DNA from: Gammaproteobacteria bacterium
GTDB taxonomy: Bacteria > Pseudomonadota > Gammaproteobacteria > Steroidobacterales > UBA11654
Direction of reading: 5' to 3'
Assembly: GCA_029242945.1 (NCBI GenBank)
Contig: JAQWSZ010000004.1
Span: 8,671-72,670 of the forward strand
DNA length: 64,000 nucleotides
How positions within the stretch are numbered: the stretch's first letter is position 1; every line of letters begins with the position of its first letter. Below, piece after piece: positions 10,490 through 48,430 of this stretch. A program made the position numbers and the translations under genes. The notes beneath the pieces were generated by a model. It was not told the DNA's origin and did not search any database. It was given only the letters and a program-made list of their open reading frames with translations.

Positions 10490-11002
10490 TTACCTAAAGT
10501 ACAAGTTTTCTGGGTACTTTTTAATCATGAGTCTATCTATTCCAAACCAATGTCCCGTTGGAAATTTAACAAATAAAAAAACTAAAATGAAAAAAGGAAT
10601 CAGGGAAGCATCATAATAGCCCCCAATAGCAAAGTTTAATAGGATAAATAAACTCATGATAGCTGACCATTTTGTGGTTAAGCCGATAAGCAAACCAATA
10701 GCACTATACAGTTCGCCGACAGTTACTATATAGGCAATCATTTTATAAAAGGGTATAGCAAAATTAGATAAATATAAAACAGCCAAGCTATCGGGAGGTA
10801 ATTCTGTCAATCGCTGAAGAAATATCTCTTTCAAGATATCACTACTGATCCATTCATTTTTAACTTTATTAATCCCTGCTAGTAACCAAAATGAAGCAAA
10901 AAAAGTTCTCAATAGAATTAAGAGTAGTATACCAAAATACCTTATAGGATATGTTTTGAAGCCATGAAAAGACCATGTATGAGGATTATCTCTCATTATC
11001 AT
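10490..11002 (-). CDS. DoxX-like four-helix membrane protein
   Basis: The hydrophobic core LLRTFFASFWLLAGINKV resembles the DoxX N-terminal block. The track start (11065) overlaps the upstream gene by 80 nt, so I prefer the internal Met at 11002 (or 10996). Confidence 0.45.
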   Translation of the reverse strand: MIMRDNPHTWSFHGFKTYPIRYFGILLLILLRTFFASFWLLAGINKVKNEWISSDILKEIFLQRLTELPPDSLAVLYLSNFAIPFYKMIAYIVTVGELYSAIGLLIGLTTKWSAIMSLFILLNFAIGGYYDASLIPFFILVFLFVKFPTGHWFGIDRLMIKKYPENLYFR

Positions 11003-11549
11003 TCTTCCTATTTTTATCAATTGTATCAATCGTTTTCCATAAGGGTAATCTTTCGCAAGATCCAAGTTTCGAATTAGTTTTGGTGGACAACCAATTTGAA
11101 GTTTTTCTATCTATCTTTCGATCATTGAAATAAATAAACCAATCATGATTAGAGGAGATGATCGCTTCACTTCTAATAGTATTAGACCAATCATTATTAT
11201 CGATTGTAATAATATCAACTGGTCGTTTATGTGAATTTGTTTTTGTAGTATCAAAATTATTAAAAAAAAATTCCCAAATAGTTGAAACTTGTGACCAAAA
11301 AGTTCTAGTTCTTAAATGGTAGAGTAGATATTTTCCATCAGTGGGTATTTCATCATTGATTTCGTATTCATCGTTGCCACAGAGCAAAATTGATTCACAC
11401 ATCGTACAGAATTCTCCAAATTGACTGTAGAGTAAATAAGATGATTTATCCTTTTTTTCATCGGATATAACATTTGAAGCTGTAATTAAAAGACTTATTG
11501 CTAAGAATGATTTAAGAAGAAAAGTTAGACGTTTTTTTTTAATCCACAT
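10986..11549 (-). CDS. Secreted hypothetical protein
   Basis: 187 aa. Signal peptide MWIKKKRLTFLLKSFLAISLLITASNV. CTMC...C cluster. No family recognised. Confidence 0.5.
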   Translation of the reverse strand: MWIKKKRLTFLLKSFLAISLLITASNVISDEKKDKSSYLLYSQFGEFCTMCESILLCGNDEYEINDEIPTDGKYLLYHLRTRTFWSQVSTIWEFFFNNFDTTKTNSHKRPVDIITIDNNDWSNTIRSEAIISSNHDWFIYFNDRKIDRKTSNWLSTKTNSKLGSCERLPLWKTIDTIDKNRKNDNER

Positions 11550-12224: not shown

Positions 12225-14138
12225 TTAAATTTTTATTTTTCTTTTTTCTGCTATTGAGATATGAGGATGCCATATCTGTTCCACAGGCTTTCCTCCAGGA
12301 TTCAATTGCATTATTCTCAAGTCAATTAAGAAAGGCCTTCCATTACTTGTAACATTATTGGCTTTTTTTAAGGCTGCAGAGAAAGAATCAGGATTATCAG
12401 CAATTGATCCTTGAATATTGAAACTATTTGCTAATCCAATAAAATCAACTATGGGATTGCCAAGATAACAACTGACATCTTTCCACATTTCTCTTGTATC
12501 ACTATTAGCGGCTAAGGGTGAATTCATATAAATTCTATTCCTTTCTCCATCATAGCTAAGATTATTAAAAATAATAATTGTTACGGGAATATCATATCTT
12601 GAAGCAGACCATAAGGATTCAATTTGGCCAAAGAGCATAGCTCCATCACCGACCAAGCAAACGACTTGCCGATTTGGTTCACCAATCTTTACTCCCAAAG
12701 AAGCACCTACACCCCAGCCTAAAGCAAAACCAGTTGACCCACCAATAAGTGATTTTTTTCCAGGGCCTAGATCCATCCATTTAAAAGGGGTTCTGCTGTC
12801 TAGTTCTGAAACAATAATTGCATCCTTCGTTAGATTTTTCTCAAGTTCATAAGAAGCTCTTTCCCATGAGAGTGGACTAGAATTCCAATTTTGTTTTGCT
12901 TTCTTTTGTTTTCTATCTTCAAATTTTTTATTGATTGCTTTATTTGCAAGCAGTCTTTTTTCTTTGATGGAATTAATTCTTTCTTTAGTTAGCATGGATT
13001 TGATGCTTTCTTTAATAGCATAAACTGTTTCCTTCATACCAGCGGCTATAGCTATATCAGTAGGATAGGTATTAGCAATATCATCAAATTCAATTCTTGC
13101 ATGAATGACTTTTGACTGTTTTGGGATAGGAGCTGTAAAAATAGTAGGATCAGGCATAGGAGCTCCTAGATTAAGAAAAACATCAGTTCCTGACAGACCT
13201 CTTGGCACTCCCATGCCATAGAAACCCATAAATGATGGATGTTTAAATGGCACATCACCATAGACGCTGTATCCCTGTGTCATTTTTATCCCTAGTAAAT
13301 CAGATAAATCAACTACTTCTTTATTAGCTTTCGCTCTAGTGACTTCATGACCAACACACATCAATGGATTTTTAGCTTCAATTAAGGCTTTAGCTGTTGC
13401 TTCAATCAACTCATTTTTAGGTTGAAGATCCAATGGTATTCTGAACTTACTCTGAGAGTGTATTGTTTGTTTAATATCACGCGTATTCAAAACTGTAGCT
13501 GGTAAACGAAGATAAACAGGTCCACCAGGAGGTGTTTCTGCTAATTTGATTGTTCGTCTAGTCATTTCACTGAGTTGTTGTGGATTTGTTACTTTCCATC
13601 TCCACTTAGTAAATTGAGACATAGTCTCTAACCAATCATCCATTTGTTGAAACCCATTACGACCTGAGAAATTAGAGCTGGTTCCATCCGATAAGACTGC
13701 AATGGATGATCGATCTTTCCAAGCATTATATAGGTTATTCATTGCACTAGGGATAGCAACTCCAGGTAAAAATAAAATGGCTGTTTTTCCAGTGACTAAC
13801 TCATAACCCTGTGCCATAGATGTGGCTTGTGATTCAGCAATTGAAGAAATAAATTCCATTTCATTCTTCATTGTTAATGCATCGAAGAATCCACTCATAC
13901 CTGTAGCACTGGTTCCAAATATATAATCAACATCTGCAGCCATCAGGGTTTCTGCTAAAATATCTGCTCCATTTCCAACTATGTACTTACCACTATCAGC
14001 AATAGGTTCACGAGCTTCTGCAGTGTTGGCAAGTAAAGAGTTAACCGCCATTTGACTAAAACCTAAAGCTAGTAATTTGTTAGTGAAATCTCTTCTAGAG
14101 AGATTTTGCTCAAGATATTTCTTAAACAATTCTCTCAT
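12225..14138 (-). CDS. Thiamine-diphosphate-dependent enzyme (acetolactate-synthase/Xsc superfamily) carrying an N-terminal twin-arginine (Tat) signal peptide
   Basis: 637 aa. ThDP motif GDGAMLFGQIESLWSASRYDIPVTIIIFNNLSY (GDG-x(n)-NN). The N-terminal Pyr domain starts at about residue 55 (GADILAETLMAADVDYIFG). It is preceded by MRELFKKYLEQNL-SRRDFTNK-LLALGFSQMAVNSLLANT-AEA. Confidence 0.85.
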   Translation of the reverse strand: MRELFKKYLEQNLSRRDFTNKLLALGFSQMAVNSLLANTAEAREPIADSGKYIVGNGADILAETLMAADVDYIFGTSATGMSGFFDALTMKNEMEFISSIAESQATSMAQGYELVTGKTAILFLPGVAIPSAMNNLYNAWKDRSSIAVLSDGTSSNFSGRNGFQQMDDWLETMSQFTKWRWKVTNPQQLSEMTRRTIKLAETPPGGPVYLRLPATVLNTRDIKQTIHSQSKFRIPLDLQPKNELIEATAKALIEAKNPLMCVGHEVTRAKANKEVVDLSDLLGIKMTQGYSVYGDVPFKHPSFMGFYGMGVPRGLSGTDVFLNLGAPMPDPTIFTAPIPKQSKVIHARIEFDDIANTYPTDIAIAAGMKETVYAIKESIKSMLTKERINSIKEKRLLANKAINKKFEDRKQKKAKQNWNSSPLSWERASYELEKNLTKDAIIVSELDSRTPFKWMDLGPGKKSLIGGSTGFALGWGVGASLGVKIGEPNRQVVCLVGDGAMLFGQIESLWSASRYDIPVTIIIFNNLSYDGERNRIYMNSPLAANSDTREMWKDVSCYLGNPIVDFIGLANSFNIQGSIADNPDSFSAALKKANNVTSNGRPFLIDLRIMQLNPGGKPVEQIWHPHISIAEKRKIKI

Positions 14139-15134
14139 TTAGATTTTTAGAATCTGTTTACCAAGATTTTTACCCATAAATAATCGATTTAATGTTTCAG
14201 GGCAATTCTCTATTCCTTCTTGAATATCCTCTTGATGTTTTATTTTTCCTTCCATTAACCATTTAGATAAATCCCCTATCGCCTCATCTCTTCTATTGAG
14301 ATAGTCAAGCACTAGGAATCCTTCCATCCGGGCTCTTTGTATGATGAGGCTACTAAGGTTTCTCGGCCCAACTGGCATTTCTTCACTGGCATAATTTGAA
14401 ATGGCACCACAGATAACAATCCTAGCATTTAAGTTAATCATATTGAGAGCAGTTTCAAGTAAAGGTCCGCCAATATTATCAAAATAAATATCAATTCCCG
14501 ATGTTGCAATTTTTTTCAATTCTTCATGCGGATTTGAATTTTTATAATCAATAACATGATCAATTCCAGCATCAGCTAACCAGGCACATTTCTCTTCACC
14601 ACCAGCTATACCAATAACATTGCATTCTTTTATTTTTGCAATTTGTGCAACGACAGAACCGGTTGCTCCAGCTGCTCCAGAAACAAGAACAGTGTCACCT
14701 TTTTTAGGATTGCCAATATCAAGAAGACCAAAATAAGCTGTAATGCCAGTAAGACCGAGGACATTTATCATTGTAGGTATAGGTAGTATTTCTGGGATCA
14801 CGCTAAACCCCTTACCATCACTAATAAAATGTGTTTGCCAATTAACAAAACCATTTACAAGGTTTCCTTTTTGAAATGAATCATTTTTAGATTCAATAAC
14901 CCTGCCTATTCCTCCTGAGCGAACGATTTCATCAATTTGAATTGGTGGAAGATATCCTGGCATATCAGTTAGCCACATTCTTTGAGTGGGATCTACAGAT
15001 AAATATTCATTTTCTACTAAAATCTCCCCTTCATTTAGTTCTGGTAAAATTTCTTCTACTAGTTCGAAATCATCATTACTAACAAGTCCTTGAGGTCTTT
15101 TTTTTAATAGCCATTTTTTATTATTAATCGTCAT
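14139..15134 (-). CDS. NADP-dependent oxidoreductase, medium-chain reductase family (YncB/CurA/PTGR-like alkenal/enone reductase)
   Basis: 331 aa. Nucleotide-binding block VSGAAGATGSVVAQIAK; lacks zinc ligands. The stop abuts the start of the ThDP gene (no gap). Confidence 0.85.
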   Translation of the reverse strand: MTINNKKWLLKKRPQGLVSNDDFELVEEILPELNEGEILVENEYLSVDPTQRMWLTDMPGYLPPIQIDEIVRSGGIGRVIESKNDSFQKGNLVNGFVNWQTHFISDGKGFSVIPEILPIPTMINVLGLTGITAYFGLLDIGNPKKGDTVLVSGAAGATGSVVAQIAKIKECNVIGIAGGEEKCAWLADAGIDHVIDYKNSNPHEELKKIATSGIDIYFDNIGGPLLETALNMINLNARIVICGAISNYASEEMPVGPRNLSSLIIQRARMEGFLVLDYLNRRDEAIGDLSKWLMEGKIKHQEDIQEGIENCPETLNRLFMGKNLGKQILKI

Positions 15135-15873
15135 TTTTTTTTATCCTTTTTTTTAATTCATCAGCTACAAAGCTAATTGACCAATTATGACCTAATCTGT
15201 TTCCTTTGTATAAGTCAGGGAGTTCATATACTTTGCTTCCTTTTAGATTAATCGCTTGAGGGTTAATTTCAAGATCTTTGAATGCTCCATCAAGTTCTTT
15301 TTGGGTTCTCCATTGAAAAAAAGCCACATTCTTTTTTATAGAATTTGGCGGTATATATTCACACAGATTATTTATAATTTTATTGCCAATCAAGGGAGAG
15401 GCTATTGTATGTATCTCTATTGACAATGAGGATGTCCAATTTTCTGCAAACCAAGATGCTAGGAGACCTCCATAACTATGACCAAGAATTATAATTTTTT
15501 TAATAGATGAATGTTCATCAATTACTTTATTCAATGCTTGTGACAATTTTTTTGCAGATGGTTGAGGGCATTTTGAATCATCCCATCGATAAAAAAAAGT
15601 TAAATGATTATTGGAATCCAGAGTTTTAAGTGGATAAATCCATTCATAGCCTTGACTATTACTTCCATGAACTCCAACCAAGAGTGTATTTTCTTTTTTA
15701 TTCTCATTTTCTAATAACTTTAATCCATATGTTAAATTCATTAGCTTTTCCCCAGAGTTACGACTATCTGAGGTTGGATCCATTGTAATAAGCCATGGGT
15801 ATGAATCAGCAGCTGTAAGAGTTGAAGTAAAGGTTGTAAAAACAATCGCCGTCATTATTATTTTTATCATCAT
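15124..15873 (-). CDS. Secreted alpha/beta-hydrolase (lipase/esterase-like)
   Basis: 249 aa. Signal peptide (…TSTLTAADS). Nucleophile elbow GHSYGG. Overlaps the downstream gene by 11 nt. Confidence 0.7.
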   Translation of the reverse strand: MMIKIIMTAIVFTTFTSTLTAADSYPWLITMDPTSDSRNSGEKLMNLTYGLKLLENENKKENTLLVGVHGSNSQGYEWIYPLKTLDSNNHLTFFYRWDDSKCPQPSAKKLSQALNKVIDEHSSIKKIIILGHSYGGLLASWFAENWTSSLSIEIHTIASPLIGNKIINNLCEYIPPNSIKKNVAFFQWRTQKELDGAFKDLEINPQAINLKGSKVYELPDLYKGNRLGHNWSISFVADELKKRIKKNDD

Positions 15874-16498: not shown

Positions 16499-17140
16499 TT
16501 AATTTTTTGCTGCAATTATTGGGCGTAAAGCTTTAACTGTAACATTCCCATCTATACTAATATCTGAAATGGATAACTCAACACCTATTACCTCTGCAAA
16601 AGCTTGATAACGCTTTTTAATCCAAATATCATGCACTTCAGATTCGGTTAAATCGTGCTGGCCCATTCGAACTGTATTTTCTAGAATTAAGCCAAAAGGC
16701 GACTGCCAAGTACGTTCAGCATCCTTATGTTCAATTTCTATAAACAATTGATAAGCACATGCTGTTCTATCAATCATTCCAACCATGACAGTTTCTAATT
16801 GACCAGTTTTAAGGTAATTTCTTCTAACTCTTTCAAGTAATGGTCTAGTAGTTTCTACTTCATGTGCAATCAACTCATCAATCATGTCATTGTTTTTTGC
16901 AAACTGAATGGTGGTTAAAATCAATTTGATTAATGCATCATTAATATCATGTTGGTAAGGTTTTGTTTCATTAAGTGATTTAAGAACAACAGCCATTGAC
17001 CTGCCCAATTGCTGTTCTCGACCCTCATAACCACTTTGTGCACCGACAAATTTTTTCCCTTCCTTATGATTATCAGCAAAAACAATATTGCTATTCAATA
17101 AGAGGGCGAAAATACTTAAAAAATATATTCGTTTTTTCAT
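16499..17140 (-). CDS. Secreted hypothetical protein
   Basis: 213 aa. Signal peptide MKKRIYFLSIFALLLNSNIVFA. No family recognised. Confidence 0.5.
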   Translation of the reverse strand: MKKRIYFLSIFALLLNSNIVFADNHKEGKKFVGAQSGYEGREQQLGRSMAVVLKSLNETKPYQHDINDALIKLILTTIQFAKNNDMIDELIAHEVETTRPLLERVRRNYLKTGQLETVMVGMIDRTACAYQLFIEIEHKDAERTWQSPFGLILENTVRMGQHDLTESEVHDIWIKKRYQAFAEVIGVELSISDISIDGNVTVKALRPIIAAKN

Positions 17141-17265: not shown

Positions 17266-18402
17266 ATGCAAAAACAAAAACATTTGATGCAGCCAATACC
17301 TAGCCATGATGAATCTGTTAGGCAGGATTTTATTACTGATTTTAGAGCTTTTTTAACGGATGAAATATACCCAAAAATTACACCATATTATGTGTCAAAA
17401 ATAGAACCAGCTTTTGTAAAAGAAAAAGGAAGAATACCAGCTGATAAGAAAGAGGTTCAGGATATTATGTTAAAGGATAGTGCTTATCAAAGTTGGAGTT
17501 TTTTGCAAAGAATCAGTCAGCAAATGATGTTCACATCTGTGATAGATACAGTTGAGAGAACTCTTGAAGACTTAATAGAGGAAACAAAAAATTATACAAA
17601 GCTAGGTAGTTTAAAGCTTGATAAAAGTCTAAAAGTACCTAGGTATTTAACTGCTTATGATATACACCAACAACCAGGCGGATATCATACTGAGAATACG
17701 GAGAATGATATTGCAGCAGGTGTAGTTTATGATATTTCATTACCTATTTATTCTAGGGATGCTATGGGTGATGAAAATGATCTGCTTGCTCAAGCAACAA
17801 TTAATTATCTAATTAATAATCTTGATGTTAAACCAAAAAAAATATTGGATATGGGATGTAATATAGGCAATTCTACATTACCTTTTGTTAGAGCTTTTCC
17901 CGAATCAGAGGTTTACGGAATTGATGTTGCAGCACCTGGTTTAAGGTATGCACATGCAAGAGCAAATGCACTCAATGCTAGTGTCCATTTTAGCCAGCAA
18001 AATGCTGAATCAACATCTTTTGAAGACAACACTTTTGATATAGTAGCTTCCTGTCTTTTATTACATGAAACCTCCCATTCTGCAATTCCAAAAATTATAA
18101 ATGAATGTGCAAGAATTTTAAAACCTGGTGGATGGATGTTGCATCTTGATGTGTATCCATTTCAGAGGAATATTGTAGAACCTTTATATGATTTTCTAAA
18201 AGATTGGGAAGTTACTAATAATAATGAAGATTTCTCTGGTGTACTAAGAGAAATGGATTTACAAGGCATTTTTGAAGATGCAGGCTTTACTAAAGATACA
18301 ATTCAATTCACTTCAGCTGAGGCTAATTCTGATGCTGATAACGGCTATACAGGAGATTTTTATCTTAAATTACCTGTGTATGTTGCTCAAGTTGCAGATT
18401 AA
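17266..18402 (+). CDS. Class I SAM-dependent methyltransferase with a ~190-aa N-terminal extension
   Basis: 378 aa. Motif I ILDMGCNIGNST, then YGIDVA, post-I/II blocks and ILKPGGWMLHLD. Confidence 0.8.
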   Translation: MQKQKHLMQPIPSHDESVRQDFITDFRAFLTDEIYPKITPYYVSKIEPAFVKEKGRIPADKKEVQDIMLKDSAYQSWSFLQRISQQMMFTSVIDTVERTLEDLIEETKNYTKLGSLKLDKSLKVPRYLTAYDIHQQPGGYHTENTENDIAAGVVYDISLPIYSRDAMGDENDLLAQATINYLINNLDVKPKKILDMGCNIGNSTLPFVRAFPESEVYGIDVAAPGLRYAHARANALNASVHFSQQNAESTSFEDNTFDIVASCLLLHETSHSAIPKIINECARILKPGGWMLHLDVYPFQRNIVEPLYDFLKDWEVTNNNEDFSGVLREMDLQGIFEDAGFTKDTIQFTSAEANSDADNGYTGDFYLKLPVYVAQVAD

Positions 18403-18407
18403 GCCAT

Positions 18408-18704
18408 ATGCCTAAGAAAGTTAAGTTACCAAGAGTCGCAAAAGGAAAAAATCTAGTGTATTTGGATGATAGTTCAATTGATAATATTTTGGCAATGGTG
18501 ATGACTCTGACTCAAGAGATTTCTGTATTAACTGATAGACTTGATACTGTCGAGAATTTAATGGCTAACAAAGGTCAGATTAATAGAGATGATATCGATA
18601 GTTTTGAGCCCGATGATGAACTACAAGAGAAACGTACAGAGAGACGTAAAACACTACTCAAAAGGGTTCTATTACCAATTGAAAAGGCTTTGGACTCAAA
18701 ATAG
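18408..18704 (+). CDS. Hypothetical 98-aa charged / coiled-coil-like protein
   Basis: ORF 5 nt after the methyltransferase stop. No family recognised. Confidence 0.45.
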   Translation: MPKKVKLPRVAKGKNLVYLDDSSIDNILAMVMTLTQEISVLTDRLDTVENLMANKGQINRDDIDSFEPDDELQEKRTERRKTLLKRVLLPIEKALDSK

Positions 18705-32776: not shown

Positions 32777-35700
32777 ATGTATAAATCATATTCAAAAATA
32801 TGGACTATAACAGTATTATTTTTATTCACAGTACAGGGTGTTCTAGCCCAAGAAGATTCATCTCAAGAAGTTGAAGAAATAACTGTCACAGGTACACAAA
32901 TTAAAGGTGCAAAGATTTCTGGAGCTCTTCCTGTTTCTGTTATTAGTATAGAAGATATTGAAGGTTTGGGCGTAGATTCTGGTGAGGAGTTGCTAGAGAA
33001 TATTGCTGAAAATGGAATGAACCTTTTTAATGAAGCTGAGAATGCATCAGGCGGTGTTAATTCAGCTCGTGGTGATATGGGTGCCTATAATTTAAGAAAT
33101 ATGGGTACTGGTAATACATTAACCCTCCTTAATGGAAGAAGGCTAGTCAACTCTCCTGGCTATCAAACTGAATTAATTGGTGGTGACTATGTTCCTGCTA
33201 TGACTGTTAATTCAAATTTAGTGCCTGTTTGGGGCATTGATAGAATGGAAATTCTTCGTGATGGTGCTTCTGCTATTTATGGTGCAGATGCTGTCGCTGG
33301 TGTTGTTAATAATGTACTGCAAAAAGATTATGAAGGATTTCAGTTCAGAACTAAATTTGGATGGTTTGATAATTTTGATGCTGAAGATAAAACATTTACA
33401 GCTAAATTTGGTAAAAACTTTAATGGTGGAGCAACCAATATTAGTATTTTCTTTGATCACTATGATCGAGAACCGATCAGTGCGCAAGAAGATCCAAGAT
33501 GGGGTAATTCTGATCACAGACAATGGACGACATGTGATTTAGCTGATGGTGTTGACCCAGAAGGAAGATGTCTTCCCGCAGGGTCTCCATGGGCAAATTC
33601 AACTAGCTTTAGAAACACAAGTGCTAATAACAACTATGGCCAGTTTGATATGGTTACATCCAGTGAACATGGTAGTAGCAATCCTTATAACCATGTCTTT
33701 ACAGATTCTAACGGCGAGTTTGAAGTATTTCCTTTGGGGGATTCTCGATGTAGTAATAGATCCAGCCAGGGTGGTGAAGTATTTGATACAGGATATGGTA
33801 CATGTATAGCTCAAGATGGTAATGGCACAGAACGATACAATCTTTGGGGATTTACTGATGCAAGATCTGATTTACAAAGAAACAATGTCTTTGTCTATAT
33901 CAATCATGATTTAGGGAATGGAATAGAATCCTTTACAGAAGCAAGTTTTTATACATCCGATTATAAAATTACTAGACATCCTTCGGCTCCTTTCTCATCA
34001 GTAAAGCATAGAGTTGGACCTGATAATTATTGGCTTAATCAAATGAAACTAGCAGATGGGACAGCACATTTTGCTGGAAAACAACTTTACGTAGACAACT
34101 ACCGATTTGCAGAAAAAATGAGAAGGGTTGAAGTTGAGAAAAAAACTTATCGATTATTACAAGGATTTAGAGGTAGTTTTGATGAATGGGATTGGGAAGG
34201 AGCTTTACTTATTTCGAAAGCAACTAGTGATGATATTACAAAAGATAGAATCTCAAATACTCTCTTGAAAGAAGCACTGTGGGACTCAACTGCAGCTGCC
34301 TATAATCCTTTTTCTGCTGGTGTTGACTCAAACATTGAAAGACTTCTTATCGACGTCTATAGAAAAGGTGAAAGTGAACTAAATATGCTTGACTTTAAAG
34401 TAGCTAACAATGAAGTATTTGAAATGCCAGCAGGTCCAATTGGGATGATGTTTGGTTTTGAATACAGGCATGAAACCGTTGTTGATGATCGTGACCCAAG
34501 ATTAGACGGCACAATCAATTATATTGATTATGAGAGTGATACGTATCCAGAAGTTTCGGATGTTGTAAATTCAAGTCCAACCGGCGATGTTTACGGTAAA
34601 CGTGATGTGATGTCTTTGTTTACAGAAGCTCAGATTCCTCTTGCTGAGAATGTGAATGCCCAAGTAGCAATGCGTTATGAAGATTTATCCGATGTGGATA
34701 GAGCACTTGTTGGCAAAATTGCAATAGGTTGGGAAATTACCGATGGTATTTTATTTAGAGCCTCAGCTTCTACAGCTTTTAGAGCACCTAATATTATTCA
34801 GATCAATGAAAAGATTGTTGTTAGATCTGGCACGCGGAATGATTATGCTATGTATCGAGTAGAGCAGTTGAATGGTTTGGATAAAGATGACCTTAATTCA
34901 AGACTCTCTATGCAAAGACAAGCAACAGGAGCCAGCAACCTGGTTTCTGAAGAATCTGATAATACCTCTATTGGTTTTGTTTTCTCTCCTCCACAAGTGG
35001 ATGATTTAACCATCACAGCTGATTATTGGTCTATAGAAAAAGAAAATACCATTGGTCTCTTTGGTAGAGATAATCATACTGTTCAAGACATGGCTCTTCG
35101 TTTTGCTAATGGTACTAATAACTGTGATAGTTTCGTTGGTAATCCAGCCGTTGTAAGAGACGATCCAGATCCTGATGAAGCGGATTATTTTGCAACAGCA
35201 GGAGTCTGTCCTTTTGGAAATGTAAAACACGTTGAGGATAATTATCTGAACTTAGCAACTAGGACGATTGAGGGCTTTGATGTTGGAGTTTATTACAATG
35301 TTGATACAAGTTTTGGTGATATTGGAATTCGCTATATTGGAAGCTTTATAGATACATTTGAACAAGTTCCAGGAGGAGCTTTCCAAGATTTAGCTCAAAA
35401 ACAAGCAGCAGGCGAGATACCAGCTGATATTCCACTCAGTGGTTTTGGTGATTTACTTCTAATGGATGGCAATTATGATAATAAACACTCTATAAGAGTT
35501 TCTTGGAGAAAAGGTCCTTATGGAGCTACATTGACTGCTCTTCGTAAAGGTGAATTTTATCAAAATAGCTTAACTCAAAGTGATGGAACTAGATTTATTA
35601 TTGACTCAATGACAACTATGGATTTGAATCTTAGTTATCGCTTTGATATTTCTGATTATAATTCAAGGCTTACTCTAGCAGTTAAAAACTTAGCTGATGA

Positions 35701-35797
35701 GAGAGCACCATTAGCTGATCGTTATTATGGGTATTTTGCGGATGCTCATCAAGACTTAGGTAGAAATTACTATCTTGATTTTAGAGTCAGCTTCTAA
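32777..35797 (+). CDS. TonB-dependent outer-membrane receptor
   Basis: 1006 aa. Signal peptide, plug region (EEITVTGTQIKG..., ILRDGASAIYGADAVAGVVN), long barrel, C-terminal ...YYLDFRVSF. Confidence 0.9.
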   Translation: MYKSYSKIWTITVLFLFTVQGVLAQEDSSQEVEEITVTGTQIKGAKISGALPVSVISIEDIEGLGVDSGEELLENIAENGMNLFNEAENASGGVNSARGDMGAYNLRNMGTGNTLTLLNGRRLVNSPGYQTELIGGDYVPAMTVNSNLVPVWGIDRMEILRDGASAIYGADAVAGVVNNVLQKDYEGFQFRTKFGWFDNFDAEDKTFTAKFGKNFNGGATNISIFFDHYDREPISAQEDPRWGNSDHRQWTTCDLADGVDPEGRCLPAGSPWANSTSFRNTSANNNYGQFDMVTSSEHGSSNPYNHVFTDSNGEFEVFPLGDSRCSNRSSQGGEVFDTGYGTCIAQDGNGTERYNLWGFTDARSDLQRNNVFVYINHDLGNGIESFTEASFYTSDYKITRHPSAPFSSVKHRVGPDNYWLNQMKLADGTAHFAGKQLYVDNYRFAEKMRRVEVEKKTYRLLQGFRGSFDEWDWEGALLISKATSDDITKDRISNTLLKEALWDSTAAAYNPFSAGVDSNIERLLIDVYRKGESELNMLDFKVANNEVFEMPAGPIGMMFGFEYRHETVVDDRDPRLDGTINYIDYESDTYPEVSDVVNSSPTGDVYGKRDVMSLFTEAQIPLAENVNAQVAMRYEDLSDVDRALVGKIAIGWEITDGILFRASASTAFRAPNIIQINEKIVVRSGTRNDYAMYRVEQLNGLDKDDLNSRLSMQRQATGASNLVSEESDNTSIGFVFSPPQVDDLTITADYWSIEKENTIGLFGRDNHTVQDMALRFANGTNNCDSFVGNPAVVRDDPDPDEADYFATAGVCPFGNVKHVEDNYLNLATRTIEGFDVGVYYNVDTSFGDIGIRYIGSFIDTFEQVPGGAFQDLAQKQAAGEIPADIPLSGFGDLLLMDGNYDNKHSIRVSWRKGPYGATLTALRKGEFYQNSLTQSDGTRFIIDSMTTMDLNLSYRFDISDYNSRLTLAVKNLADERAPLADRYYGYFADAHQDLGRNYYLDFRVSF

Positions 35798-35813
35798 GAA
35801 GTTCATGACAGAT

Positions 35814-35840
35814 AAAAAGGGAGCTACGGCTCCCTTTTTT
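35814..35840 (+). terminator. Rho-independent terminator after the TonB-dependent receptor
   Basis: AAAAA-GGGAGC-TACG-GCTCCC-TTTTTT, 17 nt after the stop. Confidence 0.85.
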
Positions 35841-35934
35841 GTAAAAGTAGCCAATTGATTGTTTATTCAAAGCTAATTATGATTTAGCTGCTTATAAAAG
35901 CTACACTAAATAATAAAATTTTAACTTAAGAGAA

Positions 35935-37647
35935 ATGCTCAAATATCTATTAATCTTTTTTATACCTTTTAATGCTTTTAGCCAACAAAGTTATATAGAT
36001 TATCAGTCTCCCTATCATCCCACTATTAATAGTAGAGGGATGATAGCATCTCAAAATATTGAGTCTTCCAATATAGGATTGGACATACTTAATAAGGGTG
36101 GAAATGCAGTTGATGCCGCTGTCGCTATTGGTTTTTCTTTAAACATTACCCTACCAAGAGCAGGAGCTCTGGGAGGAGGAGGCTTTATGCTTGTCTATAT
36201 TAAAGACAGAGATGAGCTATTTGCTATTGACTATAGGAGTCAATCTTCCTTGAATGCAGATCTTCAAACTATATTCCAAGTTGATTTACCAAATGATTAT
36301 GAAAGTGCAAATTTTAATACAGTTAAATATGGGTATAAGGCGTCAAATATACCAGGAACAGTTTCAGGTTTACTGAAAGCTCACAAAGAGTTTGGCAAAC
36401 TAAGTCTCACGGAGGTTCTAGAGCCTGTTATCAAACAAGCGAGAGAAGGCATTGTGGTTTCTTATGACTTAGAGAAAGCGATTGATAGTACTCCCCAATT
36501 ATTTAATGATCCCGAATCCAAGAGTATATATTTTCTAAATAATGAGCCACTAAAAGAAGGCTCAATTATGAAAAGACCCGATTTAGCTAAAACAATCCAA
36601 TCAATTTCTGATAATGGTTTGGATGGCTTCTATAAAGGTTCAATAGCACAAAAATTTGTCGAGGCAATGAACTCGAATAACGGATTTATAGACGCCAATG
36701 ATATGAAAGCTTATGAAGCCAGATTTACTGATCCAATTGGTATCAACTATAGAGGTAATAAAGTTTTTACGCATGGGCCGCCATCAGGTGGAGGCGTAGT
36801 TTTACTCACAGCATTGAGTTTGTTGGAAGCTTATGATTTAAAAAAGTACAAAAGTAAATCCACTAAAACTTATCACTTATTGGCTGAAGTCTTAAGAAGG
36901 GGTCATAATAATCGATCGCATCAGATTGGAGATCCTTCCTTTTATAATGTTCCTATCAAAAAGATACTTTCAAAACAGAGAATCAAAGAATTATTTAATG
37001 GAATGAGTCTTAATAAAGCCAGCCCAGCATCAAAGGTGAAGCCTCTAAGAGTCATTGAGGAAAGCAAAGATACAACGCATTATTCCATTATCGATGAGGA
37101 TGGCAATGCGGTTTCAAATACCTATACATTAGGTTATTCATTTGGATCGGGAGTGACTATTCCTGGGACTGGAATTTTAATGAATAATCAAATGAATAAT
37201 TTTGCTTATCGTTATGGGGATAAAAAAATTGAGGGAAGAGCAGCCAGTCCAGGAAATCAATTTAAACCCGGTAAAAGGCCTATGAGTACCATGGCCCCAA
37301 CGATGATTTTCGATAAACAAGATCAGTTAACATTAATTACAGGATCGCCAGGTGGTTCATTTATTCCAGATGCTATTCTGAGAATGGTGACTGGAATATT
37401 GGATTTTAACTTGAATATTGGAGAAGCAACAATGCTTCCTAGGTTACATAAGGATTGGCCTTATTCTGAATTAGAATATGAGTCGACTATTAGCTCAGAT
37501 ATTCTTAAAAATCTTAAAAAAATGGGTCATGATATTAAAGCTTCAAAAACAATGGGTAGCACACAAAGTATTCATATAAGAAATAATATAAACTATGGAT
37601 TCTCTGATCTTAGAAGACCCAATGCAGGCGTGACTAAGCAACAATGA
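35935..37647 (+). CDS. ggt: Gamma-glutamyltransferase (periplasmic)
   Basis: 570 aa. Signal peptide. Autoprocessing/nucleophile block DTTHYSIIDEDGNAVS, GSPGGS and MSTMAPTM blocks. Confidence 0.95.
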   Translation: MLKYLLIFFIPFNAFSQQSYIDYQSPYHPTINSRGMIASQNIESSNIGLDILNKGGNAVDAAVAIGFSLNITLPRAGALGGGGFMLVYIKDRDELFAIDYRSQSSLNADLQTIFQVDLPNDYESANFNTVKYGYKASNIPGTVSGLLKAHKEFGKLSLTEVLEPVIKQAREGIVVSYDLEKAIDSTPQLFNDPESKSIYFLNNEPLKEGSIMKRPDLAKTIQSISDNGLDGFYKGSIAQKFVEAMNSNNGFIDANDMKAYEARFTDPIGINYRGNKVFTHGPPSGGGVVLLTALSLLEAYDLKKYKSKSTKTYHLLAEVLRRGHNNRSHQIGDPSFYNVPIKKILSKQRIKELFNGMSLNKASPASKVKPLRVIEESKDTTHYSIIDEDGNAVSNTYTLGYSFGSGVTIPGTGILMNNQMNNFAYRYGDKKIEGRAASPGNQFKPGKRPMSTMAPTMIFDKQDQLTLITGSPGGSFIPDAILRMVTGILDFNLNIGEATMLPRLHKDWPYSELEYESTISSDILKNLKKMGHDIKASKTMGSTQSIHIRNNINYGFSDLRRPNAGVTKQQ

Positions 37648-45987: not shown

Positions 45988-46350
45988 ATGAACAATAAAG
46001 AGCATGCTCTGACTCAAAAGTTAGATGAATTAGGCGTTGATAAAATAAAGAGACATATTTTTCTTTGCGCTGATCAGACAGAAGCAAATTGTTCTCCATA
46101 TAAAAAGACAATGGAGTCGTGGGATTTTTTAAAGCAGCGTTTGAGTGAACTTAATCTTGATACTAAAGGAGGTATCTTTCGCTCTAAGGTTAACTGCCTA
46201 AGAATTTGTTCGCATGGCCCTATTGCGGTTGTTTATCCTGAGGGTGTTTGGTATAAAAAATGCACTCCTGTAGTCTTAGAAAAAATTATACAAGAGCATT
46301 TAATTTCAGGTCAACCAGTCGAAGAATTTATTATTTCAAAGCCGAATTAA
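45988..46350 (+). CDS. Thioredoxin-like [2Fe-2S] ferredoxin family protein
   Basis: 120 aa. [15 protein letters not shown] ... [20 protein letters not shown] Cys pattern. Confidence 0.7.
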
Positions 46351-48430
46351 GTGTTTCCAGGTAATAGGTTTCTTTTGCTCTTTGAATTAAATAAGCGTGT
46401 ACATCTTTTGCATCCTGTTCGGAGATTTTATCAGCAAAACTGACCATACCTTTGTTTGTATATAGACCACCTAGAGTGATTGCTAAAAAATTATCATGAG
46501 TTTTTTTATTCATGTATCGCAGGTCTGCAATAACTCCACCTCCCATTGCACCAGCACCATGACACATGTGGCATTGATAATGATAAATTTTTTCACCATT
46601 AGCAATTGAGGCTTCATCACCCATTGATTTAGGAGGTTTTGGCATGACTTTATCAGCTATTCTTTTTGGTAGTTGTTGTTTTGCATTTAAGGCAAATGTA
46701 ACAATTCGACCATTGATGGGACCACCTGAGTATTTAGGTGCTAAACCTGCTTGTAATGCAAATACTCCTCCATATCCAGCAACAACACTTAAGTATTGTT
46801 TACCATTAATGGAATAGGTAATAGGAGGAGCAACAATACCTGTTTGGAGATCATAAGACCAAAGTTGATCTCCAGTTGTGGCATTGTAAGCTACTAGTTC
46901 ACCATCGGATGTACCTTGAAATACTAAATTACCAGCAGTGGATAAAACACCTCCATTCCATGGCAGTGTTTGATATTTCTTCCAAACTTCCTTCTGTGCA
47001 ATAGGGTCCCATGCACTGAGTCGTCCTCTAATACTTTTTATAACTAGATTAAGCTGTAATAGATTTTTAGGCGGTATAATTGCTGATAAGTCTATACCGG
47101 TATTCCAACTGTCTTTTTTAAAGGTATATTCTTTATCTTTTTCAAACGGTAAATAGAGTTCTTGAGCAGGGATATATACCAATCCAGTGTCTGGATTATA
47201 TGACATAGGCATCCAGTTGTGACCACCAAGTGCTCCTGGTGATACTAACCGATCTTCTGTTTCATAATCACCCAAGGGGATCTTATTAGGTTTTCCTGTT
47301 TTAATATCAACCCCATTAGCCCAAGTGACTCTCACATAATTTTCTGCTGAGATTAATTCTCCAGTTATTCGATCAATAACATAAAAGAAACCATTTTTTG
47401 GAGCTTGCATTAATATTTTTCTGTTTTCACCATCAATCATTAAGTCAGCCAAAATAATATGTTGTGTTGCCGTATAATCCCAATTATCTCCTGGAGTTGT
47501 TTGATAATGCCAAACGTATTCTCCGTTATCAGGCCGAAGGGCAACAATGGAAGATAAAAATAAATTGTCTCCTCCATCTGGACTTCTGACTTTATAATTC
47601 CATGGAGAACCATTGCCAGTTCCAACATATAAAAGATCCAATTCAGGATCATAAGCCATTGAATCCCAAACAGTGCCACCACCCCCATATTCCCACCAAT
47701 TTGATCCACTCCATGTAGAAGCAGCAAATTTCATAGCCTCATTCTCAAAGCCATCTTCTGGATTTCCCGGTACAGTATAAAATCTCCAAATCATTTTACC
47801 TGTTTCAGTATCGTAGGCACTGACATAGCCTCTGACTCCAAAATCAGCTCCGCCATTGCCAATAATAACTTTACCTTTAATAATCCTTGGCGCACCTGTG
47901 ATGCTATAGGCATTAGAATCTTCAACTGTGGTTTTTTCCCATATTAATTCACCACTAGTTGCATCCAATGCTATAAGTCTTCCGTCTAGTGTTCCAAGAT
48001 AAATTTTACCCTCCCATATAGCCACACCTCGATTGACTGCATCACAACATAGATAGTAGGCCTTTTCTCTAGGTACTTGTGGGTCGTATTTCCATATGAG
48101 TTCACCAGTTGAGGCATCATTAGCGAAGACGACACTCCAAGCACCTGTTGAAAACATAATGCCATTTACAACTAGTGGTGTTGATTCATGACCGCGACTA
48201 CTATCTAAATCATGAAACCATTCAATACCTAATTGATTTACATTGTTTTCAGTAATTTGATTTAAACCACTGAATCGTTCTTCACTGTAGGTTCTTCCGT
48301 GAGTTATCCATTCTTCTTGATTGGACTTGGCTCCATTAATTTTCTCAGCATCAATATTAAAATCTGAAGCAATAGTTATATTGGTCACTAAGCCCAATAA
48401 GAATAGGTGTATTATTTTTGAATCCATCAC
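46331..48430 (-). CDS. PQQ-dependent quinohemoprotein alcohol dehydrogenase (type II, fused C-terminal cytochrome c domain)
   Basis: 699 aa. Signal peptide, propeller W-motifs, vicinal CC ([11 protein letters not shown]), C-terminal heme motif CHMCHG. Its 3' end overlaps the convergent ferredoxin gene by 20 nt. Confidence 0.9.

Follow-up and report, generated by a model that had tools for sequence, protein, structure and literature searches.

To our knowledge, enzymes that depend on thiamine diphosphate (ThDP) are regarded as cytoplasmic or organellar catalysts. PoxB, a pyruvate:quinone oxidoreductase that uses ThDP and flavin adenine dinucleotide (FAD), works at the cytoplasmic face of the membrane, which it reaches with an amphipathic helix, and passes electrons from the decarboxylation of 2-oxo acids to the respiratory chain, and the peroxisomal HACL1 is a ThDP enzyme that crosses a membrane after folding and cofactor binding. 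Among the enzymes with leaders for twin-arginine translocation (Tat), TorA, DmsA, NapA and the small subunits of [NiFe]-hydrogenases have long, conserved n-regions that bind proofreading chaperones, and NarG, which is not exported, keeps a vestigial Tat-like N-terminus that is used in chaperone binding. A full-text literature search, with most subscription journals outside its coverage, found no account of a ThDP enzyme that is periplasmic or exported by Tat, in agreement with a preliminary description of the locus treated here, which was aware of no characterised periplasmic member of the superfamily. The locus contains a gene for a ThDP enzyme with a twin-arginine leader and is part of a stretch of 64,000 nucleotides (the window) of contig JAQWSZ010000004.1 (positions 8,671 to 72,670 of the forward strand; assembly GCA_029242945.1) from a gammaproteobacterium of the Steroidobacterales (UBA11654). 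We consider it probable that the protein is exported by the Tat pathway and put the probability of this reading at about 0.6, judging from the sequences of the protein and its relatives and from the genes that surround the latter. Comparison within the family strengthens the case for export, with the gene neighbourhoods tipping the balance.

A three-domain ThDP enzyme with a conserved leader

The gene occupies positions 12225..14138 of the minus strand, as read from the list of open reading frames (ORFs) and the translation, and codes for 637 amino acids plus a stop codon from an ATG start; the strand had not been given in the preliminary description. All three Pfam ThDP domains were found above their gathering scores, namely the N-terminal ThDP-binding (Pyr) domain at residues 56–167, which includes Glu102 (PF02776, TPP_enzyme_N, E=2.9e-21; 13638..13973, minus strand as for all parts of this gene), the central (TH3) domain at residues 245–374 (PF00205, TPP_enzyme_M, E=3.2e-18; 13017..13406) and the C-terminal ThDP-binding (PP) domain at residues 471–606 (PF02775, TPP_enzyme_C, E=1.6e-21; 12321..12728). 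This is the architecture of the ThDP decarboxylase/carboligase superfamily (ALS/BFDC/POX/OXC type), and the ORF encodes an enzyme of that superfamily. The Mg-ThDP motif of the PP domain, GDG-x(24–27)-N(N), consists here of GDG at residues 497–499 and NN at residues 525–526, with 27 residues from D498 to N525, and Glu102, whose counterpart in the alignment to benzoylformate decarboxylase is the Glu that activates the cofactor, is invariant in 48 diverse orthologues. The three domains, the GDG-x(n)-NN motif and the beginning of the Pyr domain at about residue 55 had all been recognised in the preliminary description and were confirmed. The AlphaFold2 (AF2) model of the full protein has a predicted local distance difference test score (pLDDT) of 82.8, and a Foldseek search with this model against the PDB yielded ThDP decarboxylases and lyases as best matches (E ~1e-38); the predicted fold is closest to those of benzoylformate decarboxylases, 2-hydroxyacyl-CoA lyases and HKA synthase. 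Two family-specific segments lie outside the alignments to solved structures: a long predicted helix between the central and PP domains (residues 385–417; 12888..12986) and a C-terminal tail (residues 611–637; 12228..12308), in which W623, P625, I629, A630 and R633 are invariant among the 48 diverse orthologues and which is kept even in the distant relative P0141.

Because the alignments of all solved relatives and NCBIfam models to the protein begin at residues 53–64, the first ~55 residues represent a genuine extension. The leader proper (residues 1–42; 14013..14138) consists of an amphipathic n-terminal helix (residues 2–9), the motif S14-R15-R16-D17-F18, an uncharged stretch rich in A, G and L (residues 22–40) and A40-E41-A42. 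The twin arginines R15 and R16 are encoded by AGA AGA (14091..14096) and are invariant in 31 of 31 diverse leaders. A40-E41-A42 (14013..14021) is a putative signal-peptidase site, proposed from the sequence, with cleavage before R43. It is followed by a variable linker (residues 43–55; 13974..14012) that is predicted to be disordered, with a pLDDT of 54 in the full AF2 model and below 50 in a model of the N-terminus, and that is Pro-rich in orthologues (consensus xxPPPAxGV). The N-terminal sequence quoted in the preliminary description reads exactly as given there, including S14-R15-R16-D17-F18, the uncharged residues L22–A40 and A40-E41-A42 ahead of R43.

The family is large. Among 5.8 billion proteins searched, 610 were close homologues at E<=1e-20, the best 120 of which are 55–100% identical and nearly all 637 amino acids long, and an exhaustive HMMER search over 1.84 billion cluster representatives (50% identity), of which the top 149 were considered, gave 34 representatives of leader-bearing clusters at 29–41% identity. 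The preliminary description had left it to be checked whether orthologues keep the extension with its arginine pair. It is present with invariant RR in 119 of the 120 closest homologues, the sole exception being a truncated fragment, and 33 of the 34 leader-bearing representatives retain RR. Relatives without the leader begin at the equivalent of residue ~56, and in a rough neighbour-joining tree the leader-bearing sequences form a single clade separate from the leaderless ones. By these comparisons, the protein belongs to a distinct uncharacterised clade that is defined by a conserved leader of ~42 residues with an invariant twin-arginine motif, and the extension is, on the same grounds, translated and conserved beyond chance. 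L4, R15, R16, G26 and A31 are invariant across the 48 diverse orthologues. Set against a 91%-identical orthologue, the codons of the leader differ by 13 synonymous and 9 non-synonymous changes and those of the core by 202 and 42. The leader is under purifying selection, yet it evolves about twice as fast as the core. Across the family, the leader has the consensus [IL]-S-R-R-x-F-[ILV]-K, after which come 11–12 or more uncharged A, G, L, S or T residues, a small-x-small site and the disordered Pro-rich linker.

Evidence bearing on export by the Tat pathway

If the leader works as a Tat signal, the enzyme would fold, dimerise and bind ThDP and Mg2+ while still in the cytoplasm, and the Tat translocase would recognise S14-R15-R16-D17-F18 together with the weakly hydrophobic stretch behind it. 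The enzyme would then be moved to the periplasm, lose its leader by cleavage near A40-E41-A42 and act there on a carbonyl substrate, either a 2-oxo acid or a related compound. In relatives, the reaction may be linked, either directly or via a pathway, to small periplasmic c-type cytochromes, with the substrate entering through TonB-dependent receptors. The gene with its domains and cofactor motifs, the conserved leader, the structure of the clade and the gene neighbourhoods are observed in this best explanation, and we infer the export, the cleavage, the substrate and the electron transfer.

The motif of the window protein, S-R-R-D-F-T-N-K, contains the S, RR and F of S/T-R-R-x-F-L-K, with T and N standing at the L and K positions, and distant family members have the canonical form SRRxF[ILV]K (SRRGF[ILV]K). 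Its h-region, with 19 uncharged residues (L22–A40) and a mean Kyte-Doolittle value of 1.17, is weakly hydrophobic and lies within the length of ~12–20 residues expected of a Tat signal. The family was checked with a simplified Tat rule (RR and 13 or more uncharged residues in a row), which does not represent the TATFIND rules; the uncharged run is 12 residues long in most members and reaches 13 or more in 14 of 31 diverse leaders. A small-x-small site was found at positions 34–48 in 30 of the 31, the putative site A40-E41-A42 being that of the window protein.

Curated models gave a more divided picture. The cut-offs are 16.7 bits for TIGR01409 and 22.7 bits for PF10518; the window leader has no match to either, and the best scores of close orthologues remain below the thresholds (at most 9.6 and 14.1 bits, respectively). 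The TIGR01409 cut-off is exceeded by 6 of 21 family leaders tested. The same model also misses the classic-looking Tat signal of a DUF1838 protein encoded in one related locus (L082; 12.7 bits) and the leaders of the cytochrome-paired orthologues described below; it is insensitive. P0141, which is nested in the leader clade, carries in place of the conserved leader an ordinary, non-homologous Tat signal peptide of differing length and composition, which scores 28.3 bits. One family fragment is annotated by NCBI as a ‘twin-arginine translocation signal domain-containing protein’, and the family leaders are weakly similar to the Tat regions of TorA, hydrogenase-2 and formate dehydrogenase. Related loci encode further proteins with Tat-type signals, and a hidden Markov model of the leader, run over 1,029 neighbouring ORFs, matched only ThDP genes and one ordinary Tat signal. 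As for the tat genes, whose presence the preliminary description had wished to see confirmed, the 64-kb window contains no tatA-like ORF and no other Tat-like ORF.

The genes next to members of the family were compared in 80 related loci from GTDB species genomes and several metagenome contigs, with neighbour counts taken over 77 loci. The GTDB genome records are all metagenome bins of uncultured organisms, assigned to Woeseia/Woeseiaceae, Chromatiales, Ca. Foliamicus, unclassified Gammaproteobacteria and, in a few cases, labelled Alphaproteobacteria. In five divergent lineages, c-type cytochromes with signals for the general secretory (Sec) pathway are encoded adjacent to the ThDP gene. A conserved family of mono-haem cytochromes c (91–107 amino acids) lies 13–38 bp from RR-leader ThDP genes, before the ThDP gene in one subfamily and behind it in a paralogous subfamily. 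The upstream arrangement is found in loci L077, L078, L079, L083 and L087, where a mono-haem cytochrome c of 91–93 amino acids with a Sec signal and CxxCH is encoded 24–38 bp before the ThDP gene (L077:7698-7976; L083:3798-4079; L087:7894-8169). In the downstream arrangement (L082:2033-5338; L086:2037-5333), the paralogous RR-ThDP gene is followed by the gene for a homologous cytochrome c (L082:3944-4267) and then by that for a DUF1838 protein of 353 amino acids that carries a classic-looking Tat signal. Downstream of this three-gene cluster, at a distance of 2.7 kb and amid genes for several proteins with signal peptides, there is another RR-ThDP gene.

The other lineages differ in the type of cytochrome. 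A tri-haem cytochrome c with a Sec signal and CxxCH is encoded after the ThDP gene of the P0125 lineage (L088), and in L091 the gene order is TonB receptor, ThDP enzyme and di-haem cytochrome c, the ThDP enzyme bearing an ordinary Tat signal. In L089:1-4034, two tandem ThDP paralogues of the RR-leader family, the first of which is cut by the contig end, precede the gene for a 101-aa mono-haem cytochrome c; this cytochrome is of a different repeat family, and the repeat is present three times in L088:7956-8873 and twice in L091:6381-6914. A scan of ~1.5 Mb of related loci for small signal-bearing ORFs with CxxCH gave nine, of which six are plausible cytochromes, each beside an RR-ThDP gene, and three look like spurious ORFs in GC-rich DNA. 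Five close homologues of the partner cytochrome were retrieved via a word index, so the cytochrome side of the pairing is narrowly sampled. The leaders of the window protein and of its nearest cytochrome-paired orthologues (L077 and L083) are of one ‘degenerate’ type, SRRDFG, and the clade of the window protein is nested among cytochrome-paired lineages in the rough tree. Because c-type cytochromes mature and function solely outside the cytoplasm, the repeated pairing is independent evidence for a periplasmic site of action of the family.

TonB-dependent receptors are the commonest neighbours (17 of the 77 loci, adjacent in 8). Aminotransferases follow with 12 loci (7 adjacent), arginase-family enzymes with 8 (all adjacent) and aldo-keto reductases with 7 (6 adjacent); NADPH enone reductases, which also stand next to the window gene, recur in 11 loci and are adjacent in 7. 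Those neighbouring enzymes that were checked have no signal peptide. In two lineages, genes for flavin amine oxidases with Tat-type signals (TRRDILHG... and TRRSILKG...; L002:7093-8538 and L051:2153-3601) lie 1.5–4.4 kb from an RR-ThDP gene, which hints at a periplasmic route from an amine or amino acid to a carbonyl compound.

Alternative explanations and the surroundings of the gene

The alternative that survives best is a cytoplasmic enzyme whose residues 1–42 form a folded three-helix domain, possibly a vestigial Tat leader like that of NarG; we regard it as possible, though unlikely. Such a domain may dock a partner or chaperone, regulate the enzyme or bind peripherally to the membrane (compare the amphipathic C-terminal helix of PoxB), and the enzyme may be a 2-oxo-acid decarboxylase that serves an Ehrlich-type route with the neighbouring aminotransferase, reductase or aldehyde dehydrogenase genes. 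Several properties of the leader speak for this alternative and against export. The n-region (residues 2–13) is a conserved amphipathic helix, the length and register of the leader are fixed with zero indels down to ~30% identity, and the hydrophobic positions show helical periodicity, in addition to the invariance of L4, G26 and A31. None of the 31 diverse leaders has a hydrophobic residue at position 33; the residue there is always polar or charged (charged in 71%), which limits the uninterrupted uncharged run to 12 residues in most family members. AF2 places helices at residues 2–9, 15–24/25 and 29–42 of the leader, with a pLDDT of 72–82 within the full protein, and residues 1–59 folded alone yield a unit of three amphipathic helices with a pLDDT of 84–94 (86/89/94/84), which is atypical of signal peptides. 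The failure of the window protein in the curated Tat models points in the same direction. So do the genes around it: no cytochrome c, TonB receptor or tat gene adjoins the ThDP gene in the window, which abuts the gene for a cytoplasmic NADPH reductase, and signal-less aminotransferase, aldo-keto reductase or arginase-family genes adjoin the ThDP gene in other lineages.

The leader segment ‘AL.ALG[FL]S..A..S[VL]’, which is found in P0083-type and L083 leaders and corresponds to 14013-14138 of the minus strand of the window, shows a weak recurrent similarity to the C-terminal domain (domain III) of RuvA (Pfam RuvA_C, E=0.0027; TIGR00084, E=0.032). These matches are in favour of a folded domain, but they are weak, and a Foldseek search with the three-helix unit gave no significant structural relative (best E-value 3.4); membership in a UBA/RuvA-domain-III-like fold was not adopted. 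A profile of 31 leaders, searched against the 5.8 billion proteins, matched only short fragments and frameshifted pieces of the same ThDP family and allows no conclusion on whether the leader is a portable module.

A purely structural role poorly explains why the RR pair is invariant inside S-R-R-x-F-[ILV]-K, and it does not account for the ordinary Tat signal peptide swapped in at P0141. In addition, the Sec-exported cytochromes adjacent in five lineages imply a periplasmic partner, the three-helix unit is without a significant structural relative, and the leader evolves at about twice the rate of the core, as signal peptides do. The export reading gains support because the RR pair is family-wide, the canonical motifs of distant members pass TIGR01409, a Tat signal was exchanged at P0141 and cytochrome genes adjoin in five lineages. 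The preliminary description went further and called the leader a textbook Tat signal. Its RR motif, uncharged stretch and AxA site hold, but the term is too strong for the window protein because of the missing matches to TIGR01409 and PF10518, the T and N at the L and K positions (+3 and +4) of the motif, the amphipathic n-region and fixed length of the leader and the three-helix unit predicted by AF2. The helical and unusually conserved leader suggests an extra role, for example in retaining the enzyme, or a chaperone, until cofactor loading is complete; no gene for a dedicated Tat chaperone, including the TorD/NapD type, was present in any neighbourhood viewed.

We consider it improbable that the enzyme is Tat-targeted with an uncleaved leader, so that its helical N-terminus would hold it on the periplasmic side of the inner membrane, or on a partner, as part of a membrane-associated dehydrogenase complex with cytochrome c. 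This model would explain why the leader, including its n-region, is more conserved than targeting needs, and it agrees with the predicted disordered tether of 12–13 residues between leader and catalytic core and with the cytochrome partners of relatives. The uncharged stretch of 12–19 residues, with a mean Kyte-Doolittle value of ~1.2–1.9, is however short and too weakly hydrophobic for a stable anchor, and the small-x-small site is kept in 30 of 31 leaders.

An artefact of start assignment would turn the protein into an ordinary leaderless cytoplasmic ThDP enzyme. According to the preliminary description, a complete enzyme without the leader could not start at any internal Met; this is incorrect, as codon 30 is an in-frame ATG (M30) that lies ahead of the Pyr domain. 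Codon 4 is a TTG. The ATG of codon 1 comes immediately after the TAA of the preceding gene and has no clear Shine-Dalgarno sequence, which is likewise lacking before M30, and orthologues in loci L015 and L016 have a GAGG-like Shine-Dalgarno sequence ahead of codon 1. Because M30 is replaced by I, V or A in orthologues while residues 1–29 are conserved at the protein level over 30–100% identity, with synonymous changes in the majority, M1 remains the true start by this comparison, a start at M30 or at TTG codon 4 was rejected, and we see hardly any chance that translation begins at M30 or that the extension is untranslated.

The upstream gene (14139..15134, minus strand) codes for a 331-aa NADPH-dependent oxidoreductase without signal peptide, similar to enone/curcumin reductases, and its stop codon adjoins the start codon of the ThDP gene. 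Interleaved with genes for cytoplasmic enzymes, the same strand carries three genes for proteins with Sec signals: a 213-aa unknown protein (16499-17140, minus strand), which recurs in 10 related loci, a 249-aa alpha/beta hydrolase similar to class 3 lipases (15124-15873, minus strand) and a 187-aa unknown protein (10986-11549, minus strand). The last of these is overlapped at its end by 80 bp by an ORF for a DoxX-family protein (10490-11065, minus strand) that is called from a TTG; the real start of the DoxX gene is probably further downstream. We rejected the derivation of a pathway from these neighbours, which are a mixture of Sec-exported unknown proteins, cytoplasmic reductases and the DoxX membrane protein and are conserved only in close relatives. 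On the plus strand, a gene for a 378-aa S-adenosylmethionine-dependent methyltransferase, whose first ~180 residues match no family, is followed by a 98-aa ORF (17266-18704), and these two keep their synteny with the RR-ThDP gene in 8–9 loci, among them L002 and L005.

Two further features of the window concern periplasmic metabolism in general. A gene at 46331-48430 (minus strand) codes for a 699-aa dehydrogenase of the quinohaemoprotein type, dependent on pyrroloquinoline quinone and with a C-terminal cytochrome c domain, which shows that the organism already performs cytochrome-linked periplasmic oxidation. At 32777-37647 (plus strand), a gene for a TonB-dependent receptor (1006 amino acids) is followed by one for a gamma-glutamyltranspeptidase, and with this pair the window offers another case in which uptake through the outer membrane is coupled to an enzyme of the periplasm.

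Possible chemistry and comparison with known systems

The scores of the protein lie below those required by the equivalog models of NCBIfam, all of which were missed: 175 vs 493 bits for benzoylformate decarboxylase (NF005485), 177 vs 538 for acetolactate synthase (TIGR00118), 154 vs 676 for sulfoacetaldehyde acetyltransferase (Xsc; TIGR03457) and 135.7 vs 742 for pyruvate oxidase. Its best NCBIfam match, PRK08327, is also below the cut-off (198 vs 456). Judged by these models, the protein is no equivalog of benzoylformate decarboxylase, acetolactate synthase or Xsc and is placed in none of the characterised families of the superfamily. Our best guess for its substrate is a 2-oxo acid or related carbonyl compound, because of the logic of the superfamily and of neighbours such as aminotransferases, reductases, aldehyde dehydrogenases and cytochromes.

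We tentatively extend the export reading to an undescribed class of periplasmic, Tat-exported ThDP oxidoreductases that would decarboxylate 2-oxo acids oxidatively, or oxidise related carbonyl compounds, after uptake via TonB receptors and pass the electrons to dedicated small c-type cytochromes, although we hold this fuller proposal to be doubtful as a whole. It would amount to a new type of periplasmic respiratory dehydrogenase, with which uncultured marine and soil Gammaproteobacteria could gain energy from dissolved keto acids without importing them. Should the leader be a working Tat signal, the repeated pairing with cytochromes and TonB receptors would hint at a so far unrecognised way for uncultured, abundant marine Gammaproteobacteria to oxidise dissolved organic acids outside the cytoplasm.

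Among characterised enzymes, benzoylformate/4-hydroxybenzoylformate decarboxylase (MdlC; PDB 1bfd and 7orx) shares the three-domain fold and gave the best Foldseek match (E=7.7e-39, TM-score ~0.8 on the target). It is also among the top sequence matches (E ~1e-32), yet at only ~22% identity. The activating Glu, the GDG...NN motif and His281 (H300 in the window protein) are common to both, but the catalytic residues Ser26, Glu28 and His70 of the decarboxylase correspond to T79, M81 and P125 in the HMMER alignment, and the decarboxylase has neither the 55-residue RR leader nor the helix insertion 385–417 nor the conserved C-terminal tail. HKA synthase BbmA (PDB 8x3x), which is the best sequence match in the PDB (1e-33), and the 2-hydroxyacyl-CoA lyase/synthase of PDB 8vzd are both among the best structural matches; at ~19–22% identity and without a leader, they illustrate possible carboligase or lyase chemistry, and no membership in their families is claimed.

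For the oxidative reading, PoxB of the same superfamily is the working analogue, of which the enzyme would be a periplasmic counterpart; PoxB donates to quinone, and the putative acceptor here is a periplasmic cytochrome c. The segment that we take to be equivalent to the ‘G-[AG]-G’ of the FAD-containing families, read by hand and hence not a test, is G-H-E in the window protein and G-A-E in the family consensus. The analogy to cytochrome c-linked dehydrogenases, which are not a curated family, finds the adjacent gene for a Sec-exported cytochrome at relatives and not at the window gene. NarG, as an example of a Tat-like N-terminus on a non-exported enzyme, has lost the RR pair, whereas this is invariant in the window family, where it is followed by a hydrophobic stretch and AxA and where relatives have periplasmic partners. 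HACL1 is of the same superfamily, but it is eukaryotic and imported via PTS1/Pex5, a targeting signal that is unrelated in sequence to a Tat leader. In its targeting, the exported enzyme would resemble TorA, DmsA, NapA and the hydrogenase small subunits, where a twin-arginine leader likewise stands on a cofactor-loaded oligomeric enzyme. Those enzymes carry molybdopterin, iron-sulfur or copper cofactors, and the cofactor here is ThDP; if the leader functions as a Tat signal, ThDP would be added to the cofactors carried by the Tat system, and the carbanion chemistry of 2-oxo acids would become possible in the periplasm.

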